Source: an uncultured Gammaproteobacteria bacterium (GTDB lineage Bacteria; Patescibacteriota; Patescibacteriia; 2-12-FULL-60-25). From it: a stretch of DNA of 64,000 bases. Made by a program: the position numbers and the translations under genes. The notes under the pieces are model-generated. The model was not told where the DNA came from. It ran no database searches and worked only from the letters and a program-made list of their open reading frames with translations. Shown here piece after piece: positions 4,001-21,011 of this stretch. The stretch's first letter is position 1. Every line of letters begins with the position of its first letter. Location of the stretch: positions 3,543 through 67,542 of the forward strand of contig CAYTGF010000002.1 of assembly GCA_964437285.1 (NCBI GenBank). Reading direction: 5' to 3'.

Positions 4001-5584
4001 ATGACTTTTATCACTATTTTTCTGCCGGTGCTTGGTTTAGGTTTGGGGGCGGTTCTTGGCTATGCTTGGCGTACGCACCTCGCAACCCAAGGAAAAACGG
4101 CTGTCGAACAGCAAGCGATCGCGATACTTCGGGATGCAGAACAAAAACACAGCGAACGCCTTCAATCCATGGAGGCGCAACTTAAAGATGCCGAGGGAAA
4201 ACACCAGGATATCTTGCAACGCGCAAAAGAAAAAGCGATCAAGATTCTTGAAGAAGCTCGTCTTGAAGAAAAGCAGGCGATTGAGACCCTAAAACAGCAA
4301 CAGGCTGAGCTCGTGGCACGCGAACAAGAATTTGCCCAAAAACTCATCGATATTGATACCGAACGAAGGCAGTTCGACACTCTCAAACAGACCATCGAAA
4401 CCCAACGCGCAGAAGTGGAACGGCTTCAAATACAATGGCAAGAGGAGCTCGTGCGCGTAGCCGGACTCAGTCGAGAAGTCGCTCTGGAGCAACTCCTGAA
4501 AGATATTGAAAGCGAACAGGCCGATACACTCCTTGGACGCATTCGAAAACTCGAAAGTCACGCAAGCGAAGAGCTCGAGCTTCGAGCGAAGAACCTGCTC
4601 GCCACCATGATTCAACGACAGGCTGCCTCCCATGTCGCAGAAACGACGACGACCTACGTGGAGCTCCCAACAGATGAAATGAAGGGGAGAATTATTGGTC
4701 GCGAGGGGCGCAATATTAAAGCGATCGAACTTCTGACGGGCTGTGAACTGATTATTGACGAGAGCCCGAATCTCGTGACGGTTTCCGGATTTTCGCCCAT
4801 TCGTCGCCAAGTCGCCAAACGCGCCCTGGAAAAACTCATCGCGGATGGACGCATTCATCCTGGCCGTATTGAAGAGTTCGTGGACGAAGCGAAAAAAGAT
4901 CTTGCTATTGATATTAAAAAAGCCGGTGAAGACGCCCTTTTTCAACTCGGTATTTCTCCTGCAGAAATCGATCCAAAGTTTACGCAGATTCTTGGTCGCA
5001 TGAAATTCCGTACGAGCTACGGACAAAATGCGCTCTTACACTCCCTGGAGGTCGCGCAGCTCTCGGTCGCCCTCGCAGAAGAGCTCGGTGCGGACGTAGA
5101 AATTTGTCGTAAGGGCGGACTCTTTCATGATATCGGCAAAGCCGTCGATCATGACTTACAAGGCAGTCACCCAGAACTTGGGTATCAGATCATGAAGAAG
5201 TACGGATTCTCAGAAGACATCTGCTACCAATCCATCGGCCACCACGAAGACAAGCCACGGACGCTCGAGGCGATTATTGTAAAAGCCGCCGACGCGATCT
5301 CCGGAGCGCGTCCCGGTGCTCGAAAAGACTCTCTTGAGTTTTATATCAAGCGTCTCGAAGGACTCGAGAAAACCGCGAAGTCCTTCGAAGGGGTCGAGAA
5401 AGTCTATGCGATTCAAGCCGGTCGTGAAATTCGCGTCTTCGTCAATCCTAAGCAAGTGGATGATCTCGTCGCCGAAAAACTCGCCCGCGCGATCGCCAAG
5501 AAAATCGAAAGCGAACTCAAATACCCGGGCGAAATTCGCGTGACCCTCATCCGCGAAACACGGGTAGTAGAGGTGGCACGATAA
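4001..5584 (+). CDS. rny: ribonuclease Y
   Basis: N-terminal TM helix, long coiled coil, KH motif GRIIGREGRNIKAIE, HD motif LFHDIGKA..GHHE. An alternative upstream ATG is at 3953. Confidence 0.93.
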   Translation: MTFITIFLPVLGLGLGAVLGYAWRTHLATQGKTAVEQQAIAILRDAEQKHSERLQSMEAQLKDAEGKHQDILQRAKEKAIKILEEARLEEKQAIETLKQQQAELVAREQEFAQKLIDIDTERRQFDTLKQTIETQRAEVERLQIQWQEELVRVAGLSREVALEQLLKDIESEQADTLLGRIRKLESHASEELELRAKNLLATMIQRQAASHVAETTTTYVELPTDEMKGRIIGREGRNIKAIELLTGCELIIDESPNLVTVSGFSPIRRQVAKRALEKLIADGRIHPGRIEEFVDEAKKDLAIDIKKAGEDALFQLGISPAEIDPKFTQILGRMKFRTSYGQNALLHSLEVAQLSVALAEELGADVEICRKGGLFHDIGKAVDHDLQGSHPELGYQIMKKYGFSEDICYQSIGHHEDKPRTLEAIIVKAADAISGARPGARKDSLEFYIKRLEGLEKTAKSFEGVEKVYAIQAGREIRVFVNPKQVDDLVAEKLARAIAKKIESELKYPGEIRVTLIRETRVVEVAR

Positions 5585-5590
5585 AAAAAA

Positions 5591-5611
5591 GAAGCCTTCG
5601 CTTCTTTTTTT
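5591..5611 (+). terminator. intrinsic terminator
   Basis: GAAGC-CTTC-GCTTC hairpin plus a T7 run, preceded by an A-run. Confidence 0.75.
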
Positions 5612-5684
5612 ATACCAAGACCAGATTGACAACGACAACTATCAAATACATACTCTCAGAGGAGCGAACAAGAAAGGACGGAAC

Positions 5685-5897
5685 ATGAAGGACATACCCC
5701 TGCTCCCACTGTTTCTCATCACGATGTGTGGAGTCATGCTCGTCGATACCTTCGTATTCGAGCTACTCGAAATACCGCCCTCCACCGACACCTCCCTGCT
5801 CTACGTCGGCACGCTGCAGGGTGCCGCGTGCATGTTTGCAGTTACTTCCGTATGGCTGTTTATCGTGAATCGGAGGCGTCGACAGCCACCGAAGTAA
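5685..5897 (+). CDS. small hypothetical membrane protein
   Basis: 70 aa, two hydrophobic segments, C-terminal RRRRQPPK. TTGACA at about 5627 lies upstream. Confidence 0.4.
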   Translation: MKDIPLLPLFLITMCGVMLVDTFVFELLEIPPSTDTSLLYVGTLQGAACMFAVTSVWLFIVNRRRRQPPK

Positions 5898-5923: not shown

Positions 5924-6421
5924 TTATAACCACGCAGTATACGGAATAGCACTCGGCCGGAGTGGAATCTTCCCTTCTTTTATATCTTGCTTGTCGATCC
6001 AGATAGCGCGCCAAGTTTTCCCAAATTCTTTAATCAAGATCTCTTCTTGTTCTAATAACGCGATTTTTACGAGTTTTCCTCGGAAGATAAAGATCACTTG
6101 ATGACGTGTATTCCCCTGAAATGGGAACACATGCTCGCACACCGTCAAAAACTCAATATCTTCAAGCTCACTCCCAAGCTCTTCCCGAATCTCGCGAATA
6201 ACAGCGTCGCGAGCATATTCTCCTTTTTCGATTGCTCCCCCCAAAAAACGAACGTAGCGTTCATGAGTTTCCGGATGAAAAAACTCTTGCATCAGCCAGC
6301 GTCCCTGATGCTCGATCAGACAAAACGCCTTTACTTCGATCCCGTCTGGATACCAGTACATAGGAAGATGAGTGTAGCCAAAGAGAAGTCGCTTTACCAG
6401 ATAAGACATACCCCACCCCAA
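5924..6421 (-). CDS. NUDIX hydrolase
   Basis: Nudix box GGAIEKGEYARDAVIREIREELG. Confidence 0.85.
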   Translation of the reverse strand: MGWGMSYLVKRLLFGYTHLPMYWYPDGIEVKAFCLIEHQGRWLMQEFFHPETHERYVRFLGGAIEKGEYARDAVIREIREELGSELEDIEFLTVCEHVFPFQGNTRHQVIFIFRGKLVKIALLEQEEILIKEFGKTWRAIWIDKQDIKEGKIPLRPSAIPYTAWL

Positions 6422-6490
6422 AATTGCCTAAAATAAGCGGATATGGTATTGTGCAACTGCATTTATTCTTGTTGTTCGTGTTTCACACCT

Positions 6491-18314: not shown

Positions 18315-19085
18315 ATGTCGATTCGTGAACGATTGCAGGATCTTGGTCTCACCCCTACTGAAGCCACGATTTACCTCGCTGGATATAAACGAGTTGGGAT
18401 TGATATTCAGACGCTCGTCAAAGAAACCGATCTCAAGCGTCCAACTATTTACCACGCGCTTGAAACCCTTGTTCAAAAAGGACTTGTCGCGAAAAGCGGA
18501 TCGGAGAAGAAGCGGTTGTTTGTAATGGCTTCACCGGAGCGATTGGGCGGCTATCTGGATACACAAATCCAACAGCTCACTTCAAAAAAGGCGCTTCTCG
18601 GCGAACTCGGTTCCCTGCTCACGACAAGCGACGGCCGATCCAGCGCCATCCGCTCAGAACAATATGACGGCTTGCAAGGTGTGAAAACCGTGATGGAAGA
18701 AGCGCTGTACTGCAAGTCCCGTACTTGGAGCATCATCGCCCCGGCGCGCAACATCCTCAGTGATATGGACCCCGAGTATCAGCGCTACTACCTTCGCCAA
18801 CGCTCGACGCGCGGCATTAAGACTCGCACGTTATGGGAACGAAAATCCACCCCTGGAAAGCGCGGCCTCTCCCCCGCCGATCTCGCGCTCCGCAACCCTC
18901 GCTACCTTCCAAAAGCCCTTCAAGGACGTTTTCCCTCAATGATTATCCTGTTCGATGAGAAGATCGCCTTCTTCGGCACGAAAGAGACGCCGAGCGCAGT
19001 TTTGATCACCTCTGCCGAGTTGCACGCACTCGTCCTCGCGATGTTTGATGGAATTTGGGAGGTGTCGGAACCGTATAAGCAATAA
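18315..19085 (+). CDS. TrmB-family transcriptional regulator
   Basis: N-terminal wHTH LGLTPTEATIYLAGYK..IQTLVKETDLKRPTIYHALETLVQKGLV, typical of TrmB. Confidence 0.8.
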   Translation: MSIRERLQDLGLTPTEATIYLAGYKRVGIDIQTLVKETDLKRPTIYHALETLVQKGLVAKSGSEKKRLFVMASPERLGGYLDTQIQQLTSKKALLGELGSLLTTSDGRSSAIRSEQYDGLQGVKTVMEEALYCKSRTWSIIAPARNILSDMDPEYQRYYLRQRSTRGIKTRTLWERKSTPGKRGLSPADLALRNPRYLPKALQGRFPSMIILFDEKIAFFGTKETPSAVLITSAELHALVLAMFDGIWEVSEPYKQ

Positions 19086-19087
19086 AA

Positions 19088-19111
19088 CACCCCGACTTCG
19101 TGTCGGGGTTT
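19088..19111. terminator. bidirectional terminator
   Basis: CCCCGAC-TTCGT-GTCGGGG hairpin between convergent genes. Confidence 0.65.
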
Positions 19112-19114
19112 CAG

Positions 19115-20416
19115 TTACGCCGTCAGTCCATCTGTGCGACCGGCGAGGTCGACGTTCGCCTCGATGAAGGCGATGACCTTAGCGGGGTCCATCGTCTTCG
19201 GAAAGACGATGTTCGGGCCGTGCTTGTCGAGCATGACGGCGTGGATGCCATCGAAGTTCGCGAGCCCATCGTTCGTGTTGCGTCCGCATTCGTGCGAGCC
19301 GCATTCGTACGGCCGCTGCTCGCGTACCGGCACCATCGATCCAGGACGGAGCGGGCTGTGCATGTGCACGATGCAGTCGAGCTCAGGATGCGCCTCGAAG
19401 ATGATGCGCTGGCTCTGGCCACCCACGGACGGCTTGAAGCCGCGCGCGATCACCTCGTCCTCCCCACGCGGCTCGATGAGCACGAGTCCCGTCTCGTCCA
19501 GACGGTTGAAGTCCGTCTTGCGACGCGAAGTGAGGATGTTGCCGTTCGGCCCGCGCGAAGCGAAGTGGCCGACCGTCACACCGTTGAACGGCTTGTAGGC
19601 GCCGCGCGCGATGCAGTGGTTCACGACTTCGCGCAGCGACGGTGCCACCAACTCCGATCCCCACGACACCGCCTCGCCCGGCACGATCGTGGCCCGCGTG
19701 AACGTGAGCTGGGAACGCAGCGCGATCATCTCCGCGAGGCCAGCGAGCGCCTCGGCACGATTCGTCGTCTCGTGGTAGCGTGCCTGCTCAGGCGTGATCA
19801 CCATGTTCAGGCGCGTCTTGAGGTCATTCGCAAGTACCAGATTGCAACTCGCACCCTTCACGAGCGCCAGACCACGCAGATACTGCACGTCCGCCTCGAC
19901 TCCCGATGTCGTCTTGAAACCGACGAGGAACAGATCCTTGCGCTCACGACGAATGCTCGCAAGTACCTTCGGCGTCGACTTCGCCTCGATGACGAGCGAC
20001 TTCGACGATTCGAGCCGCGAACGCTCGCGACCCACCTGGCTCGAGGGATGACCGTCGACAATCAGCCGCGAAGGCTGAAAATCGGTGAGCGCCGCGGCGA
20101 GGACGATACCCTTCGTCGTCGGATCGGCGACGAGATGGTCGACGAGACGCTGAACGTCTTCGTTCGTGCGCAGATCCTTGATGCCGACACGAGCGAAGAA
20201 CGCCCGTTCCTCCGTCGAACGCTCCGCCCCACCGAGTGCCATCCGCGTCAGCACGAGCTGAACGCGGGCGTCCGGCTGCCCAAGGCGCACAAGCGCCTCC
20301 GCGAGCAGCGGAGCGAGCTCGCGCCCCACCGTCCCAAACGCCGGCGCCGAGAAGCTGAAGTGCGGCGCAACCTCCACAAACGTTCCACCCGCGATGACGT
20401 AGAAGATCCTGTCCAT
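19115..20416 (-). CDS. fusion protein: CoaB-like (phosphopantothenate-cysteine-ligase fold) N-domain plus class II aldolase/adducin-like C-domain
   Basis: 433 aa. N-domain: VIAGGTFVEVAP, AAALTDFQP, LVGFKTT, LVLANDL (CoaB-like blocks). C-domain: GHFASR..ILTSRRKTDF..KPSVGG..IIFEAHPELDCIVHMHSP (aldolase II-like with HxH). GGAGG upstream. Confidence 0.65.
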   Translation of the reverse strand: MDRIFYVIAGGTFVEVAPHFSFSAPAFGTVGRELAPLLAEALVRLGQPDARVQLVLTRMALGGAERSTEERAFFARVGIKDLRTNEDVQRLVDHLVADPTTKGIVLAAALTDFQPSRLIVDGHPSSQVGRERSRLESSKSLVIEAKSTPKVLASIRRERKDLFLVGFKTTSGVEADVQYLRGLALVKGASCNLVLANDLKTRLNMVITPEQARYHETTNRAEALAGLAEMIALRSQLTFTRATIVPGEAVSWGSELVAPSLREVVNHCIARGAYKPFNGVTVGHFASRGPNGNILTSRRKTDFNRLDETGLVLIEPRGEDEVIARGFKPSVGGQSQRIIFEAHPELDCIVHMHSPLRPGSMVPVREQRPYECGSHECGRNTNDGLANFDGIHAVMLDKHGPNIVFPKTMDPAKVIAFIEANVDLAGRTDGLTA

Positions 20417-20523
20417 GACAGCCTCCGTTGGAATGAGCCTGTAAGGCGGTTAATCACCTTACAACTCCTACGGTAACCAAAACCCCGCAGAAGCAGAACG
20501 CATGTTCATCACGAATGATGAAC

Positions 20524-20547
20524 AAAAGAAAAAGGAGCAGTTGCTCC
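20524..20547 (-). terminator. intrinsic terminator
   Basis: Minus strand reads GGAGC-AACT-GCTCC plus TTTTTCTTTT. Confidence 0.6.
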
Positions 20548-20552
20548 AGATA

Positions 20553-21011
20553 TCAGATGTCCCCGTCTCGGCCCTTACCCGAGTTCTTCCCCTCAAGATA
20601 GCAACTAGCATAGTGCTCGGAGAAGAAGACGTGGATACGATAGACGAATCTATGCGGTGCTTTGCCCTTATCCAGCCAATCGATGAACGTTAGAGCGTGT
20701 TCGTTGGGGGTCAGGTGAAAACGCGTGACGTTTTCTCCATCCCCAACAGCGATCCATACACCAGGCGATGCTTTCGTCGTACTTCGCCAGATCTTCAGGT
20801 CCAAGCATCTGCCCCACGCCGCGTCTTCTCGAATGCCGATCACTCCACGTTCAGCATCCTTTCTTTTTCGCCTGAACAAAGCGTTTGGCGCCACGTCCGT
20901 CGGCTTCTTGAGCGCGATCCGCTCAACTACTACCCAAAGCGGCTTCCGCGCCCCAGGCGTACACACCGCAGACCGAACCGTTCCAATCTCCTCCGTTTCT
21001 GCCATCTCCAT
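20553..21011 (-). CDS. hypothetical protein
   Basis: 152 aa with own promoter and terminator on the minus strand. Confidence 0.5.
   Translation of the reverse strand: MEMAETEEIGTVRSAVCTPGARKPLWVVVERIALKKPTDVAPNALFRRKRKDAERGVIGIREDAAWGRCLDLKIWRSTTKASPGVWIAVGDGENVTRFHLTPNEHALTFIDWLDKGKAPHRFVYRIHVFFSEHYASCYLEGKNSGKGRDGDI

Follow-up and report, generated by a model that had tools for sequence, protein, structure and literature searches.

A CoaB-like/class II aldolase-like fusion enzyme shared by Patescibacteria, predatory bacteria and giant phages

A gene in a Patescibacteria (CPR) genome of 1.18 Mb, whose IleRS has its named relatives in Patescibacteria and Uhrbacteria, raises the question of what reaction might bring a CoaB-like domain and a class II aldolase-like domain together in one protein. 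The gene lies at 19115-20416 on the minus strand of the window, as we call the whole stretch of 64,000 nucleotides that was analyzed, and it is an open reading frame throughout, of 433 aa, with its stop codon at 19115-19117. All the motifs quoted in the sequence-only reading were recovered in its translation, both those of CoaB type (VIAGGTFVEVAP, AAALTDFQP, LVGFKTT and LVLANDL) and those of aldolase type (GHFASR, ILTSRRKTDF, KPSVGG and CIVHMHSP). The same reading had described the gene as GC-rich with a GGAGG Shine-Dalgarno sequence, which also holds: its GC content is 64.4% (GC3 81%), 10 points above the window average of 54.3% and against 52% for IleRS, and GGAGG is read at 20422-20426 (minus strand), with a 5-nt spacer to the ATG at 20416. 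An antisense ORF at 19100-20476 (plus strand) was rejected as a by-product of the high GC content, because the homology evidence is entirely on the minus strand. Comparison with the orthologue in a related genome, G065, demonstrated purifying selection (dN/dS 0.10 over 433 codons), and a search for riboswitches or other RNA clues upstream of the gene and in 11 homologous loci found tRNAs alone.

Two re-tooled domains

The CoaB fold that had been proposed for the N-terminal half was borne out. Pfam DFP/CoaB (PF04127) matched residues 7-202 above its cut-off (E 1.9e-7, 31.5 bits, cut-off 22), and when the full-length AlphaFold2 model (pLDDT 95.6, pTM 0.92) was compared with the PDB by Foldseek, the best 50 matches were all CoaB/PPCS structures, including 2gk4 with an E value of 4.6e-13 and a TM score of 0.68-0.75 on the target. 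The domain comprises residues 1-235 (19712-20416, minus strand); its profile likewise found 2gk4 in the PDB (E 6.1e-15) and it matched phrog_35624 (E 7e-24), while the NCBIfam equivalogs TIGR00521 (coaBC), TIGR02114 (coaB_strep) and NF005231 gave 24-29 bits, below their cut-offs of 217-265. The fold is thus common to the domain and to CoaB/PPCS enzymes (2gk4 of S. pneumoniae, 5int, 6th2 of M. smegmatis and 1u7z of E. coli), and the GGT loop, the Asp of A-x-x-D-F/Y, the F-K/A-T strand and the N-L/I-V-A-N-D motif are kept. Unlike in these enzymes, however, the fusion partner of the domain is an aldolase fold in place of the CoaC flavoprotein; the gene is accessory, is carried by phages and has no CoA pathway around it.

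The Gly-rich NTP loop of CoaB motif I corresponds to G10-G11-T12 (20381-20389, minus strand), which aligns with the GGT of 2gk4 and with AGPT in 5int; among 50 homologues G10 and G11 are invariant and T12 is conserved in at least 90%. From the full motif, G-G/P-T-x-E-x-I-D-x-V-R-x-I-x-N-x-S-x-G, the fusion keeps only GGT and the final Gly, its E, D, R and N being replaced by V14, A17, F20 and A24 in the alignment to 2gk4 and 5int, and His19 is a new invariant residue of the family. The Asn of motif I (N210 in E. coli) is needed for the cysteine-addition half-reaction of CoaB. At the position of the K-X-K-K loop the fusion reads R134-L-E-S, in which the first basic residue is an invariant Arg (20015-20017, minus strand; aligned to the first Lys of the loop in 5int NKMKK) and the rest are lost; 2gk4 itself reads K-I-S-S here, similar to R-L-x-S. 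In bacterial-type CoaB this loop binds the triphosphate, and D281 of M. smegmatis CoaB is the cation- and triphosphate-binding Asp (PMC7794376). Judging by the AAVADY motif of CoaB, with whose Asp it aligns, D112 in A-x-x-D-F (20081-20083, minus strand; at least 90% conserved) is probably the equivalent of this residue.

The C-terminal half, residues 236-433 (19118-19711, minus strand), had been likened to the aldolase/adducin fold, and here too the assignment was upheld. Pfam Aldolase_II (PF00596) matched residues 277-355 (E 1.1e-7, 32.3 bits, cut-off 22.2), the domain modelled alone reached a pLDDT of 94.9, and the first 49 Foldseek matches listed from the PDB all belonged to the class II aldolase superfamily, in the order AraD (1k0w, E 4.5e-6), DrdA, FucA, YgbL, POD and NovR (to 1e-3). 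As judged from these high-confidence models the two-domain fusion is real and both folds are confirmed, with the two domains packed rigidly in one protein. Compared with class II aldolases (AraD 1k0w, FucA 1fua, DrdA 6btd, YgbL 6vop; TM about 0.55-0.60), the same fold carries the HxH pair, the third His and the P-S of the phosphate loop, but the segment between the second and third His ligands is shorter and holds a new C-x4-C loop. The predicted HxH ligands are H351-M-H353 (19358-19366, minus strand), which are invariant and align with VHNH of FucA, where the profile alignment places His92 and His94 opposite His351 and His353. H399 of the HGPN motif (19220-19222, minus strand), also invariant, is the putative third metal His, matched to FucA H155 by its position in the fold. 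The family-specific Cys pair belongs to C372-G-S-H-E-C377 (19286-19303, minus strand), of which C372, G373 and C377 are invariant in 50 sequences and in 44 C-domain sequences.

It had been remarked that the usual PS-x-E reads PSVG in this protein, and the profile alignment to E. coli FucA agrees, since Glu73 of FucA (Asp76 of AraD) falls on Gly332 (19421-19423, minus strand), invariant in 50 homologues. In FucA, Glu73 is the catalytic and metal-binding acid, and phosphate is bound by Asn29, Thr43, Gly44, Ser71 and Ser72 (PMC11841055). Only Ser71 is kept (S330), and Asn29, Thr43, Gly44 and Ser72 correspond to H284, R298, R299 and V331; on this alignment the phosphate pocket has turned into a more cationic, His/Arg/Arg anion pocket formed by His284, Arg298/299 and Lys328. 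The His3 Fe(II) enzymes POD (8il8), NovR (9ryg) and TqaM (9m09) are also structural matches, with no sequence similarity beyond the fold. As the metal of POD, a pyruvic oxime dioxygenase, is held by three His only (PMC11841055), and as the acidic ligand at the Glu73 position is missing, the fusion family may have a POD-like His3 metal site. However, POD, NovR and TqaM use O2, whereas strict anaerobes (methanogen MAGs and CPR) are among the carriers of the family, which makes oxygenase chemistry unlikely. The alignments of both halves indicate that both active sites are re-tooled relative to CoaB and to class II aldolases. In the set of 50 homologues, down to 35% identity, 32 columns are invariant, which like the dN/dS value speaks for functional constraint.

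A mobile family and its neighbors

The architecture had been called an unusual fusion. It is not rare, as more than 3,215 full-length matches were found, forming 138 clusters at 50% identity (E<1e-30); the claim stands in the sense that we found no paper on a CoaB-like/aldolase-like architecture and no characterized enzyme that has it, so that the family is common without being a characterized one. The gene is present in 199 viral contigs, many of them 200-570 kb, and in 113 species genomes of CPR, Bdellovibrio-like bacteria, Myxococcota and a few archaea, and a tree of the family intermixes CPR, Myxococcota, Gemmatimonadota, archaea and viral contigs. Carriage is 5/127 genomes in the order of the source genome and 4/9 in its genus. 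The gene is located in a variable interval that runs from IleRS to tRNA-Arg; G065 has it at the same site, the non-carrier G067 has different cargo there, and G068 and G070 have it elsewhere, with a divergently oriented regulator and an identity of just 63%. The gene is accessory in the source genome, and it encodes a functional, horizontally mobile enzyme that is passed among CPR bacteria, predatory bacteria and giant phages. A search of the longer homologues for extra domains gave nothing recognizable, and the BFVD viral structure library gave no significant match to the fusion. In PADLOC-DB the enzyme had no match and the regulator had weak HTH matches only; a known anti-phage defense system was excluded by the absence of a PADLOC match.

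Stand-alone relatives of the N-terminal domain, 28-32% identical to it by tblastn, were found in Caulobacter phage CcrBL9 (gp053), Pseudomonas phage phiPsa374 (gp126) and a Variovorax megaplasmid (WP_068677301). These CoaB-like proteins of phages and plasmids (phrog_35624) share homology with the N-domain but have no aldolase-fold domain; their annotation is either hypothetical or a mistaken 'phosphopantothenoylcysteine decarboxylase'. A split form of the fusion was sought, and the genes that follow the stand-alone domain in CcrBL9 and in another contig, L178, are not aldolase-like. In the Variovorax megaplasmids the stand-alone gene overlaps a gene for an ArgC-like acyl-phosphate reductase, and in phiPsa374 it overlaps a DUF4326 gene; Iyer et al. 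2022 (PMC9503650) proposed that DUF4326 strips ADPr products of their terminal phosphates. Both links would suit activated-acyl and phosphate chemistry, but they belong to the stand-alone relatives, at about 30% identity, and not to the fusion.

The neighbors of the fusion gene vary by lineage, with no universal partner, and in the source genome the regulator is the only one. In 7 CPR loci a MaoC/hotdog gene directly adjoins it or overlaps with it, and a His_Phos_1 phosphatase gene is found nearby in 10 loci, viral and cellular, both of which would be compatible with activated-acyl and phosphate chemistry. A His-rich small protein of about 110 aa is encoded beside it in 34 of 143 loci; it was rejected as an obligatory partner, being absent from the source genome and most CPR carriers.

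Convergent with the fusion gene, at 18315-19085 on the plus strand, lies a gene for a TrmB-family regulator of 256 aa (Pfam TrmB, E 2.2e-10), which shares 44% and 31% identity along its whole length with the regulators that accompany two of the homologues (loci L001 and L043). TrmB-family regulators are classically sugar-responsive. Such a regulator adjoins the fusion gene in 26 of 71 non-redundant cellular loci and in none of 72 viral loci, and together the two genes make up a module of enzyme and ligand-sensing regulator. A GC-rich hairpin found by the terminator scan between the convergent stop codons (19089-19109) is likely a shared terminator. A perfect palindrome, TGTTCATCA-TTCG-TGATGAACA, is a candidate operator at 20503-20524, 87-108 nt 5' of the ATG, and is identical in 22/22 positions at the orthologous locus of G065, where the flanks diverge; the TrmB-like protein may bind it. 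No sequence common to the regulator promoter and the enzyme promoter was found as a shared operator, and at other loci the palindromes that lie between divergently oriented genes were heterogeneous.

Weighing the possible reactions

The sequence-only reading had offered two functions, a non-orthologous ligase-decarboxylase of CoA biosynthesis and a ligase for a different substrate, and it is the latter that we still infer to be the best reading. We give about even chances to an enzyme in which an NTP-dependent domain activates an acid and is rigidly joined to a His3-metal site whose target is a phosphorylated metabolite. The N-terminal domain keeps the NTP elements of CoaB, namely the GGT loop, the putative cation-binding Asp and the Arg at K-X-K-K, and has lost the CoaB residues for phosphopantothenate and cysteine, which points to the activation of a different phosphorylated acid; most likely it would spend CTP or ATP to turn the carboxylate of that acid into an acyl-nucleotide. 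The C-terminal domain would be neither an aldolase nor an epimerase, given the change of Glu73 to Gly, and its His3 metal site would lie beside the more cationic anion pocket and Cys372/Cys377. Most likely it would grip the phosphate and the hydroxy or oxo end of the substrate, or else the incoming nucleophile, and would then trap the acyl group once it is activated, perhaps as a thioester on Cys, giving an amide or thioester product. With E, D, R and N of motif I all replaced, carboxylate activation is an extrapolation from the fold, and the N-terminal domain could simply bind a nucleotide.

As for the other function, we consider it highly improbable that the fusion is an alternative CoaBC, with the N-domain as the ligase that adds cysteine to 4'-phosphopantothenate and the aldolase-fold domain as the decarboxylase of the resulting compound. 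Genuine CoaB enzymes are the nearest relatives of the N-domain, the aldolase-fold decarboxylases YgbL/OtnC and HMPDdc are among the Foldseek matches, and two carriers (G002 and G006) have CoaE in the absence of canonical CoaB and CoaC. Yet the four motif-I residues that are substituted are kept in both aligned CoaB structures, and the decarboxylation of phosphopantothenoylcysteine requires a redox cofactor (flavin), which is absent from the aldolase fold. The CoA genes of the source genome had been singled out as a check: no CoaE was found, nor a second DFP, CoaC or PanK (the search for PanK covering type III), and a CoaD-like gene was present below threshold only (79 bits, cut-off 103). Larger genomes that carry the fusion retain canonical CoaBC as well, 122 of the 127 genomes of the order do without it, it is abundant in phages, with its 199 contigs, and CoA genes are not among its recurrent neighbors. 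The fusion is therefore almost certainly not an enzyme of coenzyme A biosynthesis, and its substrate is almost certainly not 4'-phosphopantothenate. A sugar-phosphate enzyme of the isomerase, epimerase, dehydratase or decarboxylase type, with catalysis in the aldolase-fold domain, a CoaB-like domain serving as a regulatory or nucleotide-sensing module and a TrmB-controlled sugar regulon, would account for the regulator in 26 of the 71 cellular loci. The closest structures to the C-domain, AraD, DrdA, FucA and YgbL, use pentulose or deoxyhexulose phosphates, and RpiB and Rpe are encoded 5 kb away in the window, though such proximity is not seen in other loci. We nevertheless regard this enzyme as very unlikely, as an invariant Gly takes the place of the general acid/base Glu73 and four of the five phosphate-binding residues of FucA are changed, and as the N-domain, NTP loop included, is conserved as strongly as the C-domain, which favors catalysis over regulation.

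It was also considered that the enzyme processes ADP-ribose or a product of NAD+ breakdown, the Rossmann-like N-domain binding the ADP or nucleotide part and the metal site of the aldolase fold acting on the ribose- or ribulose-phosphate part, a function that could serve phages against NAD+/ADPr-based immunity and host-dependent bacteria for salvage. Within 5 kb in viral contigs, ADP-ribosylglycohydrolase genes were found in 10 of 72 non-redundant loci, NADAR in 6 and PARP+WGR in 4; the three types combined occur in 17/72 viral against 3/71 cellular loci. DUF4326, which overlaps the stand-alone gene of phiPsa374, is also near the fusion in one phage group, two other loci have Tpt1/KptA and NUDIX genes, and the enlarged cationic pocket could take a diphosphate. 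However, two syntenic phage groups account for most of the 17 viral loci, which leaves few independent events, and these regions also hold genes for RNA repair (Thg1, RNA ligase), as the auxiliary regions of large phages usually do. Nor is there such a neighbor in the source genome or in most CPR loci, and the best 50 Foldseek matches of the N-domain are CoaB ligases, with no NAD or ADPr binders. The survey of NAD-ADPr systems by Iyer et al. (PMC9503650) does not mention CoaB or aldolase domains. Replacement of the NAD synthetase NadE was rejected, as carriage and NadE presence are not anticorrelated: NadE is absent from the genus, from carriers and non-carriers alike, and other carriers have it. 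Altogether we hold a role in processing a product of ADP-ribose or NAD+ breakdown to be unlikely. It is a shade less likely still that an NTP-driven acyl-nucleotide step and the His3-metal/Cys2 site would together make or destroy a phosphorylated small molecule that stems from the breakdown of NAD+/ADP-ribose or nucleotides. If true, huge phages would use the enzyme to weaken host immunity that is based on NAD+/ADPr, host-dependent bacteria, both CPR epibionts and predatory lineages, would induce it through a dedicated TrmB-type sensor in order to salvage that compound from their hosts, and the reaction would be one described for neither CoaB nor the class II aldolase fold.

The strong conservation of the family and its free movement among lineages suggest that the reaction is self-contained, is useful under certain conditions and acts on a common metabolite. 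Thousands of its database entries go under the name 'class II aldolase/adducin family protein' or the erroneous 'phosphopantothenoylcysteine decarboxylase', and once identified, the reaction would put right a widespread misannotation that could cause the CoA pathway to be called too often in reduced genomes. CPR bacteria, whose metabolic maps are sparse, would gain an enzyme, and a new auxiliary or counter-defense function of phages might come to light. Through the paired TrmB-like regulator and the conserved palindrome, the ligand can be approached directly by experiment.

Domains, fold and active-site residues

The enzyme gene (19115-20416, minus strand) runs uninterrupted through 433 codons, and its translation contains all the motifs quoted in the sequence-only reading; the GGAGG Shine-Dalgarno sequence reported there was confirmed, with a 5-nt spacer to the ATG. 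A distance of 5 nt separates the end of the gene from a GC-rich hairpin, which is common to the convergent neighbour gene. Pfam places DFP/CoaB on residues 7-202 (31.5 bits, cut-off 22) and Aldolase_II on residues 277-355 (32.3 bits, cut-off 22.2), while the NCBIfam models for CoaB, CoaBC, FucA, AraD, MtnB and OtnC match weakly, all far under their cut-offs. An AlphaFold2 model of the full enzyme, for which an alignment of 50 homologues was the input, had a pLDDT of 95.6 and a pTM of 0.92, and because of this high pTM the two domains are predicted to be rigidly packed. When the full-length model was compared with the PDB by Foldseek, the best 50 matches were CoaB/PPCS structures throughout, and the C-terminal 198 residues, modelled separately (pLDDT 94.9), matched class II aldolase-fold proteins only, namely AraD, DrdA, FucA, YgbL and pyruvic oxime dioxygenase, as well as HMPDdc, adducin, NovR and TqaM. 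Pfam and these model matches thus confirm both folds that had been proposed, a CoaB-like N-terminal half and a class II aldolase-like C-terminal half.

In an alignment of 50 homologues, with identity down to 35%, 32 columns are invariant. When the N-domain (residues 1-235) was aligned to 2gk4 and 5int, both of them CoaB structures, it proved to keep the GGT glycine-rich loop, Asp112, the F-K-T strand and the N-L-V-L-A-N-D motif. In M. smegmatis CoaB an Asp is a ligand of the cation that sits on the triphosphate of CTP (PMC7794376), and Asp112 is taken to be the counterpart of this Asp by way of the common AAVADY motif. The position of the K-X-K-K triphosphate loop reads R134-L-E-S, in which the Arg is invariant, and resembles the K-I-S-S of 2gk4. 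Compared with CoaB motif I (GGTxE..ID.VR.I.N.S.G), the E, D, R and N have all been lost, and His19 is a new invariant residue. For the C-domain (residues 236-433), a profile alignment to E. coli FucA was used, with residue roles from PMC11841055. FucA His92/His94 and Ser71 correspond to His351/His353 and Ser330, whereas Ser72 is replaced by Val331, Glu73 by an invariant Gly332, Asn29 by an invariant His284, and Thr43/Gly44 by Arg298/Arg299. H399, in an HGPN motif, is a third invariant His beside His351/His353, and the Cys372-x4-Cys377 loop, also invariant in the family, is part of its site. The His3 site is retained without its catalytic acid. Judged from these alignments, the enzyme is not an orthologue of CoaB, and it is not a canonical aldolase or epimerase either; it has the look of an NTP-binding domain derived from CoaB and fused to a His3 metal centre whose anion pocket is more cationic.

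Distribution and mobility of the gene

The architecture had been described as an unusual fusion. No mention of a CoaB-like/aldolase-like protein was found in the literature searched; the architecture is, however, widespread. Of 8,000 proteins scored in a word-indexed search, at least 3,215 were significant, almost all of them full-length, and an exhaustive search of 50%-identity representatives matched 498 clusters (138 at E<=1e-30). The few annotated members are named 'class II aldolase/adducin family protein', 'phosphopantothenoylcysteine decarboxylase' or 'hypothetical protein'. With one genome per species and 185,579 species searched, 113 genomes were carriers; the 80 of these that were listed are all MAGs and include Saccharibacteria, Paceibacteria, other CPR phyla, Bdellovibrionota/Micavibrio-like bacteria, Polyangiaceae, and a few Methanosarcinales and Methanobacterium. 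The fusion gene is also carried by 199 IMG/VR contigs, many of them 200-570 kb, and cultured phages and plasmids (Caulobacter jumbo phages, Pseudomonas Otagovirus phages, Variovorax megaplasmids) have stand-alone N-domain relatives only. On one 218-kb phage-like contig (L177, 5001-6488) the gene is split into an N-domain ORF of 257 aa (5001-5774) and, after about 260 nt, a 150-aa ORF (6036-6488) that matches C-domain residues 55-198 (55% identity, hhalign E 2.8e-74) and lacks the first 55 or so; the split may come from an insertion, from an intervening sequence or from misassembly.

The genome holding the window (1.18 Mb, 96.7% complete) is a CPR genome, since the nearest relatives of its IleRS bear Patescibacteria or Uhrbacteria labels. 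Within the order just 5 of 127 genomes carry the enzyme gene, and within the genus 4 of 9 do. One of them, G065, has the same gene order as the window (M16, IleRS, orf152, enzyme, convergent TrmB, tRNA-Arg, tRNA-Lys); G068 and G070 have a copy with 63% identity on other contigs, where the regulator is divergent, and in the non-carrier G067 an ABC-F ATPase and two unrelated ORFs fill the interval from IleRS to tRNA-Arg. The gene had been noted as GC-rich, and indeed its GC content is 64.4%, 10 points over the window average of 54.3%, with a GC3 of 81%; the G065 copy likewise stands 10 points above its flanks, and the regulator gene is not GC-rich. In a maximum-likelihood tree the window sequence falls inside a clade of 21 rows with full support, in which members of its order stand among Uhrbacteria, Binatia, Gemmatimonadota, Enhygromyxa and phage-like contigs, and viral and cellular sequences are repeatedly interleaved in the rest of the tree. 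Limited carriage, differing loci, high GC and the mixed tree thus mark this gene as accessory and mobile. With a dN/dS of 0.10 against G065, which indicates strong purifying selection, it is a functional, laterally moving gene in a variable IleRS/tRNA-Arg interval.

Between IleRS and the enzyme gene lies a 152-aa ORF (20553-21011, minus strand), 68% identical in G065, with its own terminator-like hairpin at 20534-20547; it had no Pfam, PADLOC or PHROG family match and was absent from the other loci examined. Public MAG records deposited as 'uncultured Gammaproteobacteria bacterium' (L008, L009, L012/L013 and L007) coincide with Patescibacteria contigs of the window's genus and family (G068:C26, G070:C60, G133:C20 and G065:C171, respectively), with which they agree in length and from which they are separated by zero-length tree branches, so their taxon labels look wrong.

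Gene neighbours and regulation

ORFs within 5 kb of the gene were clustered at 165 loci, reduced to 143 at 90% identity (71 cellular, 72 viral). A TrmB-family regulator, orthologous to that of the window (18315-19085, plus strand), lies beside the fusion gene, usually divergently, at 26 of the 71 cellular loci and at none of the viral ones. Upstream of the enzyme gene, at 20503-20524, is a perfect 9+4+9 palindrome, TGTTCATCA-TTCG-TGATGAACA (= TGTTCATCATTCGTGATGAACA), which G065 has in identical form (22 of 22 positions) amid different neighbouring bases. As a candidate operator of the TrmB-like regulator it is a lead and not a result, because palindromes at other loci are heterogeneous, some being of a TGTT...AACA type. 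A riboswitch search found none.

A family of proteins of about 110 aa is found beside the gene at 34 of the 143 loci, viral and cellular (for example L014:4253-4579 and L001:9345-9695), with invariant P56, E60, W71, H74, N75, H79, P80 and H98. It was not found in the window's genome and has no Pfam match, and phrog_36447 matches its C-terminus only; it may act as a chaperone or as a small metal-binding subunit. Other neighbours are a His_Phos_1 phosphatase (10 loci), a cytoplasmic M23-like peptidase (7 loci, Micavibrio and Alphaproteobacteria) and a MaoC/hotdog protein (7 loci, Saccharibacteria and Paceibacteria), which mostly abuts or overlaps the enzyme gene. On a Saccharibacteria contig the fusion gene is immediately preceded by an Rfam tRNA-model match of 115 nt (L067:5847-5961, 54 bits), which exceeds the length of a normal tRNA.

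On four Variovorax megaplasmids a stand-alone N-domain gene overlaps a gene for an ArgC-like reductase; enzymes of this type reduce activated acyl groups, and the pair looks like acid activation followed by reduction. On plasmid 2 of Variovorax sp. SRS16 (NZ_LR594667.1; L176:5995-7567) the CoaB-like partner of the ArgC-like semialdehyde-dehydrogenase gene is annotated 'phosphopantothenoylcysteine decarboxylase'. Neighbours at phage loci include ADP-ribosylglycohydrolase, NADAR, PARP+WGR, DUF4326, a CYTH-like protein, Thg1 and RNA ligase. A 535-aa WGR+PARP catalytic-domain protein is encoded on huge-phage contigs (L125:4089-5696, and the related L099, L113 and L139) in one block with Thg1 or His_Phos_1, metallophosphoesterase, DUF4326 and NADAR.

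The proposed reaction and its alternatives

It had been suggested that the fusion might be a non-orthologous CoaBC, ligase and decarboxylase in one. Two carriers (G002 and G006) that have CoaE but neither CoaB nor CoaC keep this formally alive. However, the enzyme lacks those motif-I residues that the two aligned CoaB structures share, phosphopantothenoylcysteine decarboxylation requires a redox cofactor that the class II aldolase fold does not have, and the gene is accessory, abundant in phages and without a CoA gene among its recurrent neighbours, so that this half of the suggestion falls and we regard it as very improbable. A check of the window's genome for selected CoA-pathway genes found no second DFP domain, CoaE, CoaC flavoprotein or type III pantothenate kinase; the sole candidate was a CoaD-like cytidylyltransferase (G000:C6:50495-50959) at 79 bits, under the cut-off of 103. 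Canonical CoaBC occurs alongside the fusion in carriers with large genomes (Armatimonadota, Polyangiaceae, Alphaproteobacteria, Methanobacterium and a deltaproteobacterium).

The main rival is that the protein binds and processes ADP-ribose or an NAD-derived compound. ADPr-related genes are present at 17 of the 72 viral loci, and in phage phiPsa374 a stand-alone N-domain gene overlaps that for DUF4326, proposed by Iyer et al. (PMC9503650) to be a phosphatase for ADPr-derived ribose phosphates. This neighbourhood signal is real but phylogenetically narrow, coming mostly from two syntenic phage groups, and we give the rival roughly one chance in five. One specific version, in which the protein would replace NAD synthetase, was rejected on testing.

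The other half of the earlier suggestion, a ligase acting on a different substrate, stands. The N-domain, with its NTP-binding elements apparently retained, would use CTP or ATP to activate the carboxylate of a phosphorylated acid. In the C-domain, predicted to be packed rigidly against it, the metal and the cationic pocket may anchor the phosphate and the hydroxy/oxo end of the substrate, or a nucleophile, and this domain would next capture the acyl group, possibly via Cys372 or Cys377 of the new Cys pair. The hotdog, ArgC-like, His_Phos_1 and DUF4326 partners fit such activated-acyl and phosphate chemistry and do not prove it. The family is a large, conserved, mobile and uncharacterised one, in which two known folds are combined with altered active sites.
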